DNA of 64,000 nucleotides from Eledone cirrhosa (Eukaryota), in the NCBI GenBank assembly GCA_964016885.1, contig OZ024746.1, positions 55,304,001 to 55,368,000 on the forward strand, in the 5' to 3' direction. How positions within the stretch are numbered: the first letter of the stretch is position 1; each line of letters starts with the position of its first letter. The translations under genes were made by a program, and so were the position numbers. Shown here in pieces: positions 4,464-52,695 of the stretch. The notes under the pieces were generated by a model. The model saw only the letters and a list, made by a program, of their open reading frames with translations. It had not been told where the DNA came from and did no database searches.

Positions 4464-5481
4464 TCTCCCTATCTCCCCCTCTCTCTCTCTGTATGCGTGT
4501 GTGTGTGCCTTGAGGATGTGCAGAGTATAGTTTAGTTTTGGTGTCTATTTTTCGGGTTCTGGCTTCTGATGTATTGAATGTACTTTATGTATAATGTGTG
4601 CTGACTGAGCCTAACGCTGTTATTTTATATATCGTGTATAAATTATCCTGAAGTTCTATAGTTAGGTGTTTTACTACAATAACTTTATTCGAACTTTATT
4701 TTTAATGTGACTTACAACATGAGCTACATGTTATAATGCGACACAAAATGCATATATGTGATAAATCACTGTCTTATTTGTGTATATAATTTCTTAATGT
4801 TGCGAAAAATTGTATTTTTTGAGATTCTCTAATAGGTCAGCACTGGCAGTTTGAACATTACTGAGCTACATAACGTCATCTACTTTACATAAAATATAAT
4901 CTGACTGAGCCTAATGGTGATATTCTGTTTCTATATGCGTATATCTTGAGATTATATACATAAGCATGTATCTGCAATCTCTTTATATCGTTCTCTATTG
5001 TACTTAATATGTTTTTTTTACTGCACATATCATAGCACTTCTATTATTGTGTGCCTTGGGCATGTGCATAATTATGCTTAGTTTTGCTGACTATTTTTCT
5101 ATGGTGTTTTTATAATGTATTGAATGTAAAAGACAGAATGTGTGCTGAGTGCACCAATATTTTTATTTTATATATTATCTGTAGATGCGTGATTTCTGCA
5201 GTTATATAAAATGTTTTGTTTATATCTATTCATATCTTTGTAATTTTTACATAATGTATATGTAGACTGTTTAGTCATGTTATATTGTTTATGTTCTCTA
5301 GATCCGTGAAACGTGGGTTTATGATGCATGTATGGACTCGTGACTATTGATACTGTCGAAGGGAACTGTATTTAAGTATAGCGTTTCTCTGATATTTGAA
5401 ATCTGGCGGAGTATATATCCTCTCGTGGTCTGAACACAACCGATTTCTTCCATATATATATATATATATATATACATATAT

Positions 5482-5718
5482 ATTTATTAAAATAACAGAT
5501 TAAAGTTTAAGCAAAGAATCGCTGCTTTCACCCTTAACGGGATCTTCTGAAGATTAGTTTCAGAAGATCCCGTTAAGGGTGAAAGCAGAGATTCTTTGCT
5601 TAACTTTTAATCTGTTATTTTAATAAATATTTGCTCTACTGTTCATATATATTTGATATATGGTTATCCTTATCGAGCCCTCTATGGATTTTAGTCTTCA
5701 AATTTATTATTATTACTA
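5482..5718 (+). mobile_element. minimal fold-back PLE family A insertion (inverted short end + end with tail)
   Basis: 5482-5551 is the reverse complement of 5559-5630; both match the 3' end of the PLE at 52430-52596; flanked by (TA)n. Confidence 0.85.
5556..5605 (+). ncRNA. hammerhead-like motif, family A (CAGAAGA core); inverted copy at 5504-5551
   Basis: AGTTT-CAGAAGA-TCCCgttaaGGGT-GAAA-GCA...TGC-TT-AACT. Confidence 0.6.
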
Positions 5719-13749: not shown

Positions 13750-13822
13750 GGTGATGAGTTGGTATAAATGGTAGCACAATGGTCCGGATAACCAAAGATG
13801 TGGGTTCGACTCCCATGTACCT
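13750..13822 (+). other. tRNA-like head (pseudo-tRNA or SINE head)
   Basis: ATGGTAGCA A box and TGGGTTCGACTCCCA T arm; non-canonical anticodon loop. Confidence 0.45.
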
Positions 13823-13998
13823 CAATACTCATCTTTTTCCATTCCTCCGAGGGTTCTTAACCCCACTATCAGTCTAAATAATTTATTTAATTTCTTTAGT
13901 CAAAATACGCCGATAGCTTACATTTCTAATAATTTCAAACCCACTCGCTGTTTCGAAAATAATCTTACTTGATAATATATATATATAGTTCTCTCTCT

Positions 13999-16530: not shown

Positions 16531-17900
<1,370 letters not shown>

Positions 17901-18081
17901 GTTCCTTTATTATATATATATATATACATACGTTTTTAAATATATATATATATACATATGTTTATATATATATATATATATATGTATATGCACATGTTTA
18001 TATATATATATATATATATACATATATTTATATATATATATATATATATAAGCCCGCGCTCACACACAAACACACACACAC

Positions 18082-19362
18082 GTAGGGCCTACATAGGGTT
18101 AACCGCCAATAGATTCAAGCAGCGTCTTTACATGCATATCCATTCTTTTCGTTATCCTCTAAGAAGGAATATGACGTCACTTTCTGCTTATATCTGGAGT
18201 CTAAAAGACAACCACACCCAATATAAGTTACACTGGGAGATCCTAGCGTGGGCTAGATCGTATAACGGAAATAAAAGACCATGTGACCTCTGCGCCGCTG
18301 AGGCCCTGGAAATACTCTACGCCACAGACCACATCTTAAACAAAAAATCTGAGGCAATTTCGGCTTGTAAACATAAATTGCACAACACTTTCCTGTATTA
18401 CAGCCCCACGTTATACCCTAACGGATAGTACGATCTATACGTGGATTTTTTACGTCTCGATGTGGGAGCTAAGTATACCTTTACTTATTTGCATAGGTAA
18501 GTATATATTATCCGTATGTTTTGTGAAGGTACGTATACCTTCTCGTACGTATATTTATTTGTTATGGCGTATAATTGTTTTAATATATTCTGGTACATAT
18601 GGTTCGGCTATGTGTATACGGGAGTTTTGCGTCTGTGTGAGTATGCAAGTTCGTACGTATGTAGGGCGTGTGTATATGTGTACTTCATGTTTTGGTTGAC
18701 TTACGTTTCCGAACATTCGTGTATTTACATGTAGGTATGTGTGTGCGCTTCTTATATACGTATTTATTTATTTATATACGTTTATATAATTATTTATTTA
18801 TTTGTATACACGCTTACACACACACACACATTTATATGTGCGTGGTTTTGTTTACCCATGGTAAGTTTTTGCGTATGCTTGTGTATGTACATTTCTGTTT
18901 GCGTGTATGCATTTATTTATTTCTATTACTTCTGTATTGTATTATTTACTTTGTTCTTAACTCTGTAGCGGAGATTCATTCGGTCTCCTAGTTAGAATTT
19001 AGTCTACGATTTCTGCTATACCATTTACGTGGTTTTGTCTTTGCGTGCTATTGTTCTCCACGGTCCACATATGACGTATTATCTTCGTTTTTTTCGTTCA
19101 TCGCCAGAGAACGTTTCCACGAACCAAAGTATCGTCTTCCTGTCTTCCTCCGGTTGCAACGTTTTTTGAAATATCCAGTTCTGCGTTTACATATTGACTT
19201 TGTTAGTTTCAGAAGATCCCGTTAAGGGTGAAAGCAGCGATTCTTTGCTTAAACTTTAATCTGTTATTTTAATAAATATTTGCTCTACGGTTCTTATATA
19301 TTTGATATATATTTATCCTTATCGAGCCCTCTCTGGATTTTAGACTTCAAATTTATTATTAT

Positions 19363-19367
<5 letters not shown>
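18082..19367 (+). mobile_element. 5'-truncated PLE family A copy (GIY-YIG C-terminus 18082-18428, 3' UTR, HHR 19205-19255)
   Basis: AYIGLTANRFKQRLYMH...CDLCAAE...LNKKSE; near-identical to 51160-52596. Confidence 0.9.
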
Positions 19368-19429
<62 letters not shown>

Positions 19430-19433
<4 letters not shown>

Positions 19434-20210
19434 CACCAGGCTGTTGCCATTTTACGTCTGTAAGTATAGATTTAATATTTAATATTTAATAATATTTAAT
19501 ATTTAATATTAGATCGATACACGCGGACTATATGTACTTGAATTAAGGTATTTCTATCTGGCTAAAAAATTATTGTCATTTTGCAAAAAAACACATTAGT
19601 GTTGATCATATTTTTTTTAATTGTACTGTAATGCTCAGAAGTATTTTCTTAGAGCTTAATAATTGTATTTGACTACTAAATTGAAATAAATCTGCTCCTT
19701 CGGTAGAGCTGAATTCATAATCCCATATATACGGCTGTTATTTCTAGCACCATGGATATGAGCCAGAATGCTGAGAAGGTCGTGTGCAAAAGCACATGTA
19801 TTAGGCCTGCGACAGATCAGTCTTAAGAGTATTATCTTAGGAGAAGTAACTATAATTTCTGGGTGCCTATTGAAAATCACAGAAAATTGATTACTTCACT
19901 AATAATTATTTTATAAATAGTTGTTCCGTAATTAATTAATTATTTCATTAGTATACCATCCCTTGTGAAACAGGTTTATGTTTTGAAGTTCCGACCGATC
20001 TGCTGAAAAGGTTTGAATTTTGAAATGTAAACTTGTCTTGGCACCAGGCAGTTGCCATTTTACGTCTGTAAGTATAGATTTAATATTTAATATTATCTAG
20101 ATCGATACAGGCGGACTATATGTACTTGAATTAAGGTATTTCTATCTGGCTAACAAATTATTGTCATTTTGCAAAAATAACACATTAGTGTTGGTCATAT
20201 TTTTTAAATT

Positions 20211-20216
<6 letters not shown>
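19430..20216 (+). mobile_element. family J non-coding element, about 608 bp unit x 1.3 (terminal direct repeats 19433-19627 / 20041-20216)
   Basis: direct repeat read from sequence; flanked by (TA)n. Confidence 0.85.
19862..20045 (+). ncRNA. large variant hammerhead (U3-A8 core, 22-bp stem III, GUC)
   Basis: GGTGCCTA-TTGAAAA-[about 90 nt]-GAA-ACAGGTTTATGTTTTGAAGTTC/GAATTTTGAAATGTAAACTTGT-C-TTGGCACC; stem II register ambiguous. Confidence 0.65.
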
Positions 20217-20278
<62 letters not shown>

Positions 20279-20333
20279 TACATATATATATATATATATA
20301 TAGATACATATATATATATATATATATATATAG

Positions 20334-20369
<36 letters not shown>

Positions 20370-20467
20370 GCCCGCGCTCACACACAAATACACATTATAT
20401 TTAATATAATAAACATTATTTACTACTTATCTATCCATCTATATATATAAATATAAGTATATACATA

Positions 20468-20589
<122 letters not shown>

Positions 20590-30326: not shown

Positions 30327-31530
<1,204 letters not shown>

Positions 31531-32661
31531 TTTGCTCTGCCTTTATGTGTGTGTGGAGAGTAACTCCAATAACTTATATGGTGAAAATACATAAAATACA
31601 ATATGAAATTATGGATAATAATAACGATAAGAATACTTAATGCTGCAGTTTAATCCAGATTAGTTGTCATAAAGCAACTATAATGGACAATATCATGGAG
31701 TTATTTGGACGATCATCGCATGTCACAACGCATTTATTCCATGTCACCCCTCGCTGATAAATATACAGATCAATATAACATCCAACAAACAGTGATATAA
31801 CGTATAAGGGAATATATTGTTGATAACATCGCACTATCAAATAAAGAAAGATCAAAGGTAACAATCCTCACATCGGTCCAAGGAAATTTTTTCCATTGGC
31901 CTTTCCAGTGCTGTTAGCATTTGCCGGTCACACATCTAGACATGAAGAAGATGGATTTCAAATCAGAATAAGCAAAGCATGATCAGATATGTTTATGTAG
32001 CCACCGTCCAGCTATTTAGAGATACCGTCAATCCAACACCACTGAACTGGAATGTTATTGTTCAAAACGAAAGTATGGAAAGCAGGGCTGGCCTCGGCAT
32101 GGTTTAAAGTTAGAGTGGAGCAGCATTATCACAAATGTAACAAAGATCTGCAAAGCCTTCAGTTATACTCGGGCGCCAGTATGAAGCGACGTAAACATTC
32201 CTATGGTTTATTAAACCTGTGAATTATGGACGGAGTACCAAACGTTTATTTTTCCCCAGACAGGTAGTCTTCGCTAGGTTAATACGCACCATTCACTTTG
32301 TCCTGGCTATTCATGTATGTTAGGTGGTTCCTGGCTTTTGTTAGGATGAAGATTGTCAATGTTTATTTGATCACCAATTTTCGTGAAGTATTAATTTGTT
32401 TCAATGCTACTTAATTTTCAACAAATATCTCGAAGCATTTTACCCGATGCTCCTATGAATGTGCTATAATACCTGCCTTTCAATTATAGGCACAGGGTCA
32501 TAGAACTTTGTTGAAGAGAAAATCGATTAAACCAAGAGTAATATTATACCGGTAACTAAATTTAACTAATAAACAAATGAGACATTTTTTCCCGATGCTT
32601 TAACGACTTTGACGACCATGATAATAATAACGGGGCTTATATAGACAAAAGGCCATCACTT

Positions 32662-35574: not shown

Positions 35575-35860
<286 letters not shown>

Positions 35861-40569: not shown

Positions 40570-41640
40570 AATCCATATATGGTCAAAGTGATTATCACAG
40601 GGATTGGTCAAAATATTGTAGTTGAGACATAATAATTCTATGATGGCAATTTGTGGAGAGAATGGGTAGCTAAACCTGCCAGTAGGAGAAAGAGGGAGAG
40701 GGGGTGGAGGAGACCCATTAATGCGTTGATAGTGCCGGCTACAGCTGGGCGTGAGGTCAAAGAAGATACTAGGGAGGGGGAGGGGGAGGACGTCGAAAGA
40801 GTAAGTAGAACAATAAGGCGTAAATATATAGAAAAATACTGAGAGTGTTAAAAAGCAATTAAATGTAAAAAGGAAATAAACAATTTCTGGTTACTACGAC
40901 ATAAGTCTCTCACTATTGCTAGGCTAAAAAAATATACTAGGTGGGACGGAATTAAAATGAAACCCTTTTAAGAGGTATAAATAATAAACCGAGTATATCT
41001 TACGGTGACGGGTCAACAAGTGAGGGGCCAAAATACTAAAGAAACTACCACGAAATAATAAAAGTTTCTACCCCAGGCACAAGGCCAGCAACCACCCAGT
41101 GCAAAAAAGTAAACTAATACGAAATAATAATTCAGAGTCCCGAAAAAGAATACTAATACTATCTCTAAGCGTGCCGCCACGATACAAATGTTCTAGTGAA
41201 AGCTACATAAAAGCTCGTACGAAGTAAAAGTAAAAATTTGATACGGAAAATTAATTCAGACCCCCCACCCCCCCAAAAAAAATACTGATAAACGACAAAC
41301 TAAAGCAAAGATACCACTAAGAAATATAGCAAGCACGGAAAAGGGGCAGCGGTCGGATAAGAGGGCAAGTATCCGGGGTCTAACACATCTGCTATAAAAA
41401 GCGGATTTGGCCAAATCTATCATAGAATAGGGGAAGGGGGTGGGTGTACTGAGGCTACAAGAGACCGAGGGGCTGCCTCGGGTGGGCGAGAAAAAGACGA
41501 CGACAAAGAAAGATAACTGGGGTGGAAGGACTAGGGAGGGATGGGGGAGGGAAGGAAATATAGAGGAAGCGATAAAATGATATAAAAGAAGATCTTACGT
41601 CTCCCTTAGCAAGCAGGGTTACCCATTACAAAAGGAAATA

Positions 41641-42356
41641 TCCTACTGTCCAGCTCCCATTAGCGGAACCAGCAGGCAACACCGCCGCTCACGCAATGTA
41701 ACATGGTTCAATCCTCCCCACAACGCCGAGGTGACAACTCCTATCGGGAAAATATTCTTTAGGCTCATTGAAAAACACTTCCCACTACAACACCGCTACC
41801 ACAACATAATTAACAAAAATACCATCAAACTCTCTTACAGCACTACACCAAACTTTGCACAAAACATCGTCTCCTCCAACAACAAAAAACTCAACCCCTA
41901 TGGAAGAAATAACCTAAATAGCAGTGCAGAGCCGACCAGGAGGTGCAACTGTCCTGATGGATCCATTTTCCCCCTCGACAACAGATGCAGAGATCGTAAT
42001 GTGATCTACCAGTGCAACTTGAGGACGGACACCTCCAACAAAGCTTATACAGGATTAACGGCATGTGACTTCAAGACCCGGCTATACCAACACAGACATA
42101 CCTTCCAAAACCCGTCCCACTACACTTTCGGGCCACATATGGGACCTCGAGTATAACAACATTACCTATGATCTCACTTGGAGATTACTGTCCAGAGCCA
42201 ACTCTTACACGGGAGGAAACTTTACATATGTTGTTTTCGACGGACCAACTCCTAAACAAGAAAGATGAACTGGTTACTGCATGTAAACACAGATTGCGTA
42301 GGACTTACCTCGCCCTCAAACCCCATAATGACCCGGAGGGTAGACTAGGGCTATAA
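41641..42356 (+). pseudogene. PLE linker plus GIY-YIG endonuclease (frameshifted)
   Basis: RSRNVTWFNPPH, KHFP, IKLSYS, CNC, NVIYQC, AYTGLTACDFKTRLYQH, LLNKKDELVTACKH. Confidence 0.9.
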
Positions 42357-49738: not shown

Positions 49739-49790
<52 letters not shown>

Positions 49791-49859
49791 TATGAAAATA
49801 ACAGATTAAAGTTTAAGCAAAGAATCGCTGCTGTCACCCTTAACGGGATCTTCTGATCT

Positions 49860-51509
49860 GATCTCAACATCCTGGATCGGACCGAACCTCTGGACCCTAT
49901 TTCTCCCCACTTTACCCTGAAGGATCACAAATCCAATTTTCCGAACAACCCCTCTATTCGGCTTATTAACCCTACGAAGTTCGATTTAGGTAGACTTAGT
50001 AAAACGATTCTTGATAGAATTATACCTGAAATTAGAAGTTTGGCCCCTCTTGCACTGTTGAACAATTCTTTCGCGGTGATTGATTGGTTCAACGGCATAT
50101 GCAACAAGGAACATTGCCGTTTTATCCAATTCGACATCAACAATTACTACTCCTCCATCACTTTACCACTTCTCCTTAGAGCTATCAATTTCGCTAAAAC
50201 ACTCACAGTGGTTAAGGATTTCGAAGTTGATGTCATCCTCAATGCCCGAAAGTCGGTGATTAATTTCGACGACTCTATTTGGATTAAAAAATCCAATAGT
50301 ACCCCATTCGACGTGAGTATGGGCGCCAGTGTCTCTGCGGAGGTTACTGATCTTATTGGCCTTTTCCTTCTTTTCTCTATCAAGGACGAATTCCCCTACG
50401 CGGGCGGTGATTTGTACCGTGACGATGGTCTTTTGATCATGACTAAGTGCGGACCTCGTGCTTGCGACAGGTTCAGAAAAGAACTCACAGCCTTCTTTAA
50501 AGGCTTCAACCTCTCTATACAGGTTGACGCCAATCTCTGGTCGTTAATTACCTCGACGTTACCTTCAATTTATTGAATGGGTTGTATTACCCCTATAGAA
50601 AACCGAATGATACGCTTAATTACATAAGTAAGCATTCCAACCATCCTGCCAGCATAACCAAAAACCTAGTAAGAAACATTTCGTTGAGGCTTTCCCGTCT
50701 TTCCACCAACGTGCGTATTTTCAACGACCATTCCACTTATTACAATGAAGCTCTTGCTTGAAGTGGATTTGTCGATAAGGTAGCATATACAGAGTACGAA
50801 AATAGACCTAGAAGGAATAGATCCCGTCGCATGTGTTGGTATAACCCACCATATAATATGGAGGTGGCCACACCATTAGCTAGATCTTTCTTTCCCTTAT
50901 TACGAAGCATTTTCCCCCTACACATAAATATAGTAACATTTTTAATAGAAATACTATTAACATTTCTTACTCTAGGACTCCTAACCTTGCTCTTAACATC
51001 ACAGCTTCAAATTTAGCTAAACTACCTAGCCGTAGGAACACGTGCAACCCTGTAGTTAATACTAACTGTAATTGTCGGAATCGGGCTGATTGCGCCCTAT
51101 CCGGGAAATGCCTCTCTAGTAACATTGTCTACAAATGTAAGGTTGTAACACCCACGTCCCGTAGGGCCTACATAGGGTTAACCGCCAATAGTTTCAAGCA
51201 GCGTCTTTACATGCATACCCATTCTTTTCGTTACCCTCTAAGAAGAAATATGACGTCACTTTCAGCTTATATCTGGAGGCTAAAAGACAACCACACCCAA
51301 TATAAGTTACACTGGGAGATCCTAACTAGGGCTAGATCGTATAACGGAAATAAAAGACCGTGTGACCTCTGCGCCGCTGAGGCCCTGGAAATACTCTACG
51401 CCACAGACCACATCTTAAACAATAAATATGAGGCAATTTCGGCTTGTAAACATAAAATTGCACAAAACTTTCCTATATTACAGCCCCACGTTATACCCTA
51501 ACGGATAGT
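49860..51509 (+). pseudogene. PLE reverse transcriptase plus GIY-YIG endonuclease (about 3 frameshifts, 1 stop)
   Basis: TLKDHKSNFPNNPSIRLINP, QFDINNYYSSI, FDVSMGA, LYRDDGL, NYLDVT, YRKPN, SNHP, WYNPPY, CNCR..C..C, NIVYKC, YIGLT. Confidence 0.93.
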
Positions 51510-52433
51510 ACGATCTATACGTGGATATTTTACGTCTTGATGTGGGAGATAAGTATATGTTTTGTTTATTCCTTTACTTATTTGCATAGGTAAGTATATA
51601 TTAAGCGTATGTTTTGTGAAGGTACGTATACCTTATCGTACGTATATTTTATTGTTATGGTAATAATTTTATATATTCTGGTACATAGGGTTTGGCTATG
51701 TGTATACGGGAGTTTTGCGTCTGTGTGAGTATGCAGGTTTGTACGTATGGTGGGTGTGTGTATATGTGTACTTCTTGTTTTAGTTGACTTACGTCTCCGA
51801 ACATTCGTGTTTTTATATGTAGGTATGTGTGTGCGCTTGTTATATACGTATTTATGTATTTATATACGTTTATATAATTATTTATTTATTTGTATACACG
51901 CATACATACACACACATATTTATATGTGCGTGGTTTTGTATACCTATGGTAAGGTTTTGCGTATGCTTGTGTATGTATGTATTTGTTTGCGTGTATGTAT
52001 TTATTTATTTCTATTATTTCTGTATTGTATTTATTTACTTTGTTCTTAACTCTGTGCGGAGATTCATTTGGTCTCCTAATTAGAATTTTAGTCTACGACT
52101 TCTGCTATACCATTTACGTGGTTTTGTCTTTGCGTGCTATTGTTCTCTACGCTCCACATATGACGTATTATCTTCGTATTTTCATTCATTGCCAGACGAC
52201 GTCTCTATGCACCACCTAAGAGAACATTAGGCTACGACCTCTTTTATACCATAAACGTGGTTCTGTCTTTGCGCGTAATTGTTTTTCACCACTCCTTTTA
52301 ATGACGTATTATTCGTTTTTTCCCATTATTTACCAGCGAACGTTTCCACGAACTAAAGTATCGTCGTCCTGTCTTCCTCCGGTTGCAACGTTTTTTGAAA
52401 TATCCACTTCTGCGTTTACAGATTGACTTTGTT

Positions 52434-52484
52434 AGCTTCAGAAGATCCCGTTCAGGGTGAAAGCAGCGATTCTTTGCTTAAACT
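52434..52484 (+). ncRNA. hammerhead-like motif, family A
   Basis: CAGAAGA core, CCC/GGG stem II, GCA/TGC stem III, distal stem I CAGATTGA/TTAATCTG. Confidence 0.6.
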
Positions 52485-52591
52485 TTAATCTGTTATTTTA
52501 ATAAATATTTGCTCTACGGTTCTTATATATTTGATATATATCTATCCTTATCGAGCCCTCTTTGGATTTTAGTCTTCAAATTTATTATTAT

Positions 52592-52695
<104 letters not shown>

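Follow-up and report, generated by a model that had tools for sequence, protein, structure and literature searches.

How does a non-coding repeat come to begin at the place where its own RNA is predicted to cut itself? The question arises from a stretch of 64,000 nucleotides (nt) of the Eledone cirrhosa genome, called here the window (contig OZ024746.1, positions 55,304,001 to 55,368,000 of the forward strand), drawn from the 3.0-Gb assembly GCA_964016885.1. The window carries an insertion (19430-20216) of 1.3 units of a non-coding repeat, family J, within a (TA)n run. We conclude that J is a retrozyme without long terminal repeats (non-LTR), likely mobilised by a Hydra-type Penelope-like element (PLE), with a new large variant of the hammerhead ribozyme. 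No second J copy occurs within the 64-kb window. In window positions, the insertion and its target are composed as follows.

19430..20216, + strand: whole family J insertion, one full unit and a partial second unit, flanked by (TA)n runs
19430..20037, + strand: unit 1, cut site to cut site, 608 nt in this copy
20038..20216, + strand: incomplete second unit with its 3' end at priming site A (~177-184 in the unit)
19366..19429, no strand assigned: (TA)n target, left part
20217..20556, no strand assigned: (TA)n target, right part

The window copy reads GTC at 20035-20037 and then TTGGCACCAGG. At 19430, 608 nt upstream, it reads TTAGCACCAGG, and the two GCACCAGG copies of the element are 608 nt apart. 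The family J junction is GTC followed, after the cut, by TAGGCACC, which gives a perfect stem I; compared with it, TTGGCACC and TTAGCACC are both private to the window copy. Both of its junctions, and also its stem III, thus carry private changes. A preliminary description of this DNA had placed the start of the insertion at the predicted cut and the unit length at 608 nt. Its GUC at 20035-20037, boundary at 19430, 608-nt spacing, TTGAAAA, GAAA and stem III of 22 pairs with six G-U are all found in this copy. However, the boundary agrees with the cut within 0-3 nt and not to the base, the (TA)n flank making assignment to a single base impossible. Likewise, 608 nt is the length of this copy only. 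The family unit is about 591 nt, and the window unit includes a local duplication of about 20 nt near 19487-19507. In one copy, the coincidence of 5' end and cut could be chance, the background rate being about 1% for each arrival.

We compared the 5' ends of the whole family with the cut. J copies were located by the exact 24 bases that follow it, which have 182 exact matches genome-wide, and 82 distinct regions were analysed, later 34 more. All listed 24-mer matches on contigs C1-C3 make up the unselected set (63 regions, 105 5' ends). Three regions without the exact 24-mer, one segment of the sister family K and two homopolymer-only splits were excluded, and one misaligned end was corrected by hand.

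In this set, unit positions 1-4 hold seven of the 105 5' ends, where 1.06 would be expected (P 1.2e-4). We then separated them by arrival, that is, by the first, second or third cut site reached from the 3' end. Copies stop at the cut in 1/79 first, 5/20 second and 1/1 third arrivals. The later arrivals combined give 6/21, with 0.17-0.34 expected (P 3e-8 to 1.6e-6), and they differ from the first arrivals (Fisher P 2.8e-4). When only C1-C3 5' ends beyond a first junction are considered, no 4-nt window is stronger than the one at the cut. A separate motif count gives 6/20 second-arrival stops in J, and pooling with other contigs gives 7/32 (P 1.6e-8 to 1.6e-6). Genome-wide, eight of the 182 matches lack C17, the base before the cut; seven are true 5' boundaries, the window copy included, and one is a point change. 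C17 is absent from every stop. On C1-C3, the closest end upstream of the cut is 9 nt away from it, and the junction of locus L063 is blunt at +1. Since the stops occur in both J subfamilies, in varied flanks and in arms primed at either of two sites (A and B, below), they are tied to position and not to length.

Across family J, unlike in the single window copy, the coincidence of 5' ends with the cut site is not chance. The excess is partial, and most long copies read through. The first cut site was passed in 78/79 arrivals, so a cDNA start about 180 nt past an intact second site, which the preliminary description had proposed for the window copy, is the rule of the family. The same description expected 5' ends to pile up at the cut, and held that the copy preserves a ribozyme-cut RNA end. 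This reading is supported in part: J shows the spike, and the covariation described below backs the hammerhead, but the effect is partial, is accompanied by other hotspots and is absent in the sister families, and the cut itself is a prediction.

Two J subfamilies are present, one with the core TTGAAAA (J1; 53 exact matches) and the other with CCGAAGA or CTGAAGA (J2; 58), and the U3-A8/C3-G8 switch occurs between them. The sisters K and M were found through the chance neighbour of one J copy. K has 116 matches of its own 24-mer, some of them M copies. M has a canonical CTGANGA core and 205 matches of a degenerate pattern, two of the 30 loci examined being unrelated. Among K/M first arrivals, 4/97 are flagged as stops, two of them one duplicated event. 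J occurs in tandem, as dimers, trimers and one five-junction array, with a type I hammerhead in each unit. The array (L107, G000:C1714) lies on an unplaced contig and could be a source of multimeric RNA. In contigs from four sequencing runs of unknown kind, 591-nt units are joined head to tail, and none of the ends is informative. No RNA run was listed as containing J, which says nothing about its expression. Two K copies, L115 and L133, have 21 nt deleted across the cut site and are joined at a short repeat.

The 3' ends of J are also not scattered. On C1-C3 (n=105), 50 fall at unit positions 163-185, 30 at 233-243, 9 at 208-225 and 16 elsewhere. Priming site A (~177-184) is the commonest, and K/M ends lie at the matching two places. 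Each main 3' site stands directly 5' of a GCTC...GAGC motif.

19633..19655, + strand: GCTC...GAGC motif directly following priming site A, retained by K/M and found in the corresponding position of the neighbouring PLE; a candidate protein-binding hairpin
19694..19709, + strand: second GCTC...GAGC motif, directly following priming site B (~243 in the unit); its loop in J1 is C(UUCG)G

In 35 of the 63 C1-C3 regions both strands are present, as a partial tandem with an inverted, 5'-truncated arm. We found 44 head-to-head J insertions, and in 38 of them each outer end can be assigned to class A or B. Site A is on one arm and site B on the other in 36 of these 38 (18.9 expected, P 2.5e-9). In K/M inverted pairs the combination is A with B in 20/20, two being duplicates. 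This arm pairing is the 'tail at one end' signature of Penelope elements (PMC8557442). Such two-site priming explains the 3' end of the window copy, and the preliminary account of that end had missed it.

Two further observations concern these sites. First, 5' ends are enriched at the priming sites as well (unit positions 229-246 and 173-191), and short arms primed at B frequently end close to site A, which could mean two enzymes on one RNA. Second, A-primed arms that stop at site B after one lap were considered as a sign of circular templates, and the difference is not significant (8/31 vs 1/19, P 0.13).

Most J 3' ends carry (TA)n. This target is shared with an autonomous element of the same genome that has reverse transcriptase (RT) and GIY-YIG-like frames, a Hydra-type PLE. 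Its copies in the window are the following.

49786-52595, + strand: Hydra-type PLE, RT and GIY-YIG-like frames broken by frame changes, ending in (TA)n
49857-50576, + strand: RT frame of this PLE
50884-51501, + strand: GIY-YIG-like frame, with the Hydra-clade motifs CxCX5C, CxxC and CxH
18069..19365, + strand: 5'-truncated Hydra-type PLE copy directly left of J, its 3' (TA)n run entered by J
5480-5717 and 35714-35860: other PLE copies

This PLE ends at either of two 3' positions separated by 87 nt. GCTC...GAGC immediately follows the first, and the inverted arms use the shorter end. Downstream of its site B only (TA)n flanks occur (8 matches). It is very common in the flanks of the analysed loci. 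The PLE assignment is based on Atlas look-alikes and on motifs described in PMC8557442. Sequence searches against Pfam and PDB gave no name to the frames. No frame of at least 150 amino acids overlaps the J element and the unit has no open reading frame (ORF), so J does not encode RT or GIY-YIG itself. J and the neighbouring PLE share only a 4+4-nt motif and its position. The neighbouring PLE is a candidate source of the J-mobilising protein, although the two have no alignable homology. An identical 19-nt stretch follows a TA run at 18052-18070 and 20371-20389, on both sides of the truncated PLE and J. It is likely the target duplication of the PLE, whose TA run J entered later.

The predicted ribozyme of the window copy has the parts listed here.

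19862..19869, + strand: stem I, 5' strand, pairing with 20038-20045; private U.U at pair 1.2 in this copy
19870..19876, + strand: core U3-U4-G5-A6-A7-A8-A9 (TTGAAAA); the 3-8 pair covaries as U-A or C-G among subfamilies
19877..19966, + strand: stem II, 19877-19879 with 19964-19966 (U.U, C-G, A-U), closing a structured loop of ~84 nt
19967..19970, + strand: G12-A13-A14-A15.1 (GAAA), invariant among 14 aligned variants
19970..20036, + strand: stem III, 19970-19991 with 20015-20036, 22 pairs in this copy, 23-nt loop
20035..20038, + strand: GUC triplet; predicted cut between 20037 and 20038, from the hammerhead consensus

We aligned 14 variants, one common form per subfamily plus the window copy, and drew the structure by hand from these related rows. 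In this structure 93.9% of 474 cells are paired and eight pairs have changes on both sides. With partners slid by 1-3 columns, 17-50% are paired, with 0-2 two-sided pairs. These shuffle counts are not probabilities, the rows being related and the structure drawn from the same rows. The two-sided changes are the 3-8 pair, three pairs in stem I, two in stem II and two in stem III; seven additional stem III pairs have one-sided changes. Variation is placed as a hammerhead allows: N7 varies, and G5, A6, A9, GAAA and GUC are constant. The core follows YUGANRA...GAAA...NUH, with U4C in J2, and the 3-8 positions are paired in 14/14 rows, as U3-A8 in J1/K and as C3-G8 in J2/M. The U3-A8 core pointed out earlier in the window copy is one form of this covarying pair. 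Positions 10.1-11.1 are U.U in J (4/14 rows) and G-C in K/M, so J lacks the G10.1-C11.1 pair. Stem II, held to be ambiguous in the preliminary description, is settled by these relatives (U.U at 10.1-11.1, then C-G and A-U). Three helices, an open stem I and the covariation across subfamilies identify the motif as a type I hammerhead, for which self-cleavage after C17 is predicted.

The giant, G-U-rich stem III belongs to this copy in its exact size. It has 22 contiguous pairs with six G-U, one of them a private change at a place where family J has U.U; the family form has 21 pairs and five G-U. In K/M, two further core-adjacent positions of stem III are mostly unpaired, and the stem II loop is about 30-45 nt, compared with ~84 nt in J. 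The + strand of 19857-20049 folds at z = -5.3 (0/200 shuffles as good), and the - strand at z = -0.94; the preliminary description had noted that the G-U pairs form on the + strand only. Rfam gave no hammerhead match at the gathering score in the window and none among 59 matches at E<=5 in four loci, likely because of the large loops. So these large hammerheads, with several hundred exact motif matches, are invisible to Rfam. Three other hammerhead-like motifs were noted. One lies in the 3' part of the truncated PLE (19205-19256, +), with core CAGAAGA (A at position 4); its stem II has U.U at the base, and its triplet is poor. Two are type I candidates with canonical CTGATGA cores, found with a simple descriptor at 17086-17130 (+) and around 13560 (-); in the former, stem III is minimal and palindromic, as is typical of PLE motifs.

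We propose that J is copied into (TA)n runs by the RT-endonuclease of a PLE, and that the window 5' end marks RNA cut by the upstream hammerhead, with a probability of about 0.7. Tandem J copies would be transcribed. The PLE protein would bind the two GCUC...GAGC hairpins, nick both strands of the TA run and prime internally at sites A and B. It might favour RNA with the nearest hammerhead intact, either uncut or religated. On a circular or uncut multimeric template every cut site would be passed. On a linear multimer cut at some of its sites (about 1 in 5 long J templates), copying would run off at the 5'-OH and the copy would start at the cut. The window copy would be such a run-off, primed at site A. 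A stricter version, in which insertion ends record a Penelope reaction where a dimer primes two strands from two hairpins, takes intact-hammerhead RNA and runs off at the upstream cut, has in our view an even chance of being correct.

Several points weigh against this proposal. Second-arrival stops are 0/4 in the 34 further J loci. Outside C1-C3, a hand count of core-anchored loci gives 1/11 stops with the window left out. In K/M second-arrival stops are 0/17, compared with 6/20 in J (P 0.02), and the five of 116 K matches without C17 are three point mutants and two copies from one duplicated event. Other 5' hotspots are present at unit positions 77-83 (5 vs 0.4 expected) and 242-245 (5 vs 0.6). 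Microhomology of 1-8 nt makes it uncertain at which base several of the stops fall, and L028 can be explained by the self-complementarity of stem I alone. The split by arrival number was made post hoc, although the hypothesis itself came from the preliminary description. Blastn found no match of J to the PLE copies within the window, other PLE families of the genome being unsurveyed. In vitro work on a PLE protein (PMC11167929) found no RNA reads ending at the hammerhead cut and a dispensable cleavage. Finally, the active fold of J is predicted to lie 7.4-8.4 kcal/mol above the ensemble, in a model without tertiary contacts; it appears unfavourable in naked RNA because a slipped stem II captures G12. 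The sisters lie at 2.1-3.6 (K) and 1.5-7.9 kcal/mol (M). A link between weak folding and stopping is not established, with M2 at 7.9 kcal/mol and M-type stops at 0/8. A mutated downstream hammerhead in the stop copies is also unsupported (critical-position change in 8/9 vs 58/90, P 0.26, confounded by subfamily differences).

Other origins of the stops must be weighed by the same counts. Independent cutting at every site is ruled out by the asymmetry between first and second arrivals. This asymmetry (1/79 vs 6/21) would also arise, with no preference for uncut RNA, from a nicked circle: a cut monomer whose ends are held by the folded hammerhead, the nick being jumped once and the copy falling off at the second arrival. 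The 5' end would still be ribozyme-made, and the second site would be neither uncut nor religated. The two K copies with the 21-nt junction deletion, and one J copy that jumps from +1 to position ~455, fit such a template. Conversely, read-through junctions are nearly all exact with no added bases, L094 stops only at its third arrival, and K, predicted to fold better, should yield more nicked circles and yet has 0 stops. We consider this origin unlikely.

A joining artefact has slightly lower odds still. Here, TA microhomology with the target, or fold-back between arms, would fix the junctions without cleavage. The cut would be favoured because the cut product starts with UA and because stem I has a self-complementary counterpart further upstream in the unit. 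The hotspot at ~80 is likewise TA-rich, and TA after C/G is mildly enriched (23 vs 13.7 expected; 23 sites). Stem I microhomology is found in L028 and L250, L064 joins (TA)n seamlessly, and K1, which starts with CAG, has no stops. However, the artefact predicts equal rates at first and later arrivals, contrary to what is observed; M-type copies mostly start with UA too and have 0/8 stops; the junction of L063 is blunt, and that of L049 carries one additional T; and the excess survives the removal of L028 (P 2.8e-5). An RT stall at the foot of the long stem III, again without cleavage, seems highly improbable. This stem is the most stable local helix, and its 3' strand ends one base before the cut, but the same helix is passed at 78/79 first arrivals and in K/M. 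A stall at its foot would be expected to keep C17, and no stop does.

The proposal of copying from hammerhead-cut RNA can be compared with known systems. Animal non-LTR retrozymes (PMC7229834; bioRxiv 10.64898/2026.07.22.740005) are, like J, protein-less tandem units with one type I hammerhead each, low GC and co-occurring PLEs. No LTR hallmarks were seen in J, and its unit lies within the 51-972 bp range of the preprint. The U.U at the base of helix II is as in axolotl HHR_Amex2. J and its sisters differ by a helix III of ~20 pairs and a loop II of 30-84 nt, where a 1-2-pair helix III is typical of animals, and by mostly dispersed copies of 1-3 units with strict two-site 3' ends. Circular RNA has been shown for the animal retrozymes. 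At the DNA level J carries the features of an animal non-LTR retrozyme, of which expression as linear and circular unit-length RNA would be expected. Both sources propose, without mechanistic proof, that PLE proteins move animal retrozymes.

J also resembles Poseidon of Anolis (PMC11167929) and the Hydra clade (PMC8557442) in its partial tandems, its inverted 5'-truncated arm and the tail between two internal priming sites. It shares (TA)n targets with the Hydra clade and, with both, a hammerhead upstream of the priming sites. Its tail is longer (~60 nt in J and ~80 nt in K/M, compared with 30-40) and J has no ORF. According to PMC11167929, a PLE protein primes internally in vitro at two sites, extends both strands and has uncut RNA as its main substrate; the protein is predicted to be a dimer, and the PLE 'tail' is traced to the two internal sites. 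The function of hammerheads in PLEs is called 'still unclear' in PMC8557442.

Among hammerhead variants (PMC4209133, PMC3088659), the features of J are shared singly. U3-A8 is described in Schistosoma PLE motifs and large helices III in fungal and protist PLE ribozymes, and U.U at 10.1-11.1 is a described natural variant (PMC3088659). The combination, the U4C subfamily and the very large loop II are different. The nearest precedent for the 5' junction is R2 with its ribozyme like that of hepatitis delta virus (PMC3774820). There the cut also sets the 5' junction, and junctions are variable with chance microhomology. R2 is another element with another ribozyme class, and its cut gives the full-length end; in J this concerns only about a fifth of the long copies. 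In the literature searched, which covers the field only in part, no paper was found that counts where the 5' ends of PLEs or retrozymes lie relative to the hammerhead cut. What is new here is the large hammerhead variant and the two counts (5' ends by arrival and A/B arm pairing); a ribozyme-set 5' junction was already known for R2.

These counts can be repeated on an assembly, and they address both the function of hammerheads in PLEs and the mobility of retrozymes driven by PLEs. J and K/M offer a natural comparison of sister ribozymes without and with the 10.1-11.1 pair. If the proposal is correct, the insertions would be in vivo evidence that hammerhead-cut RNA templates Penelope-driven retrotransposition. 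It would also mean that Penelope proteins serve animal retrozymes, here with hammerheads of a size class missed by standard descriptors.

Other features of the window are minor. A tRNA-like sequence at 13753-13824 (+) is barely over the Rfam threshold (30.3 bits) and is possibly a pseudogene or the head of a short interspersed nuclear element. Fragments of an RT of the long interspersed nuclear element type (Pfam RVT_1) and of a second PLE-like endonuclease frame are present at 30590-31649 (-) and 41581-42156 (+).
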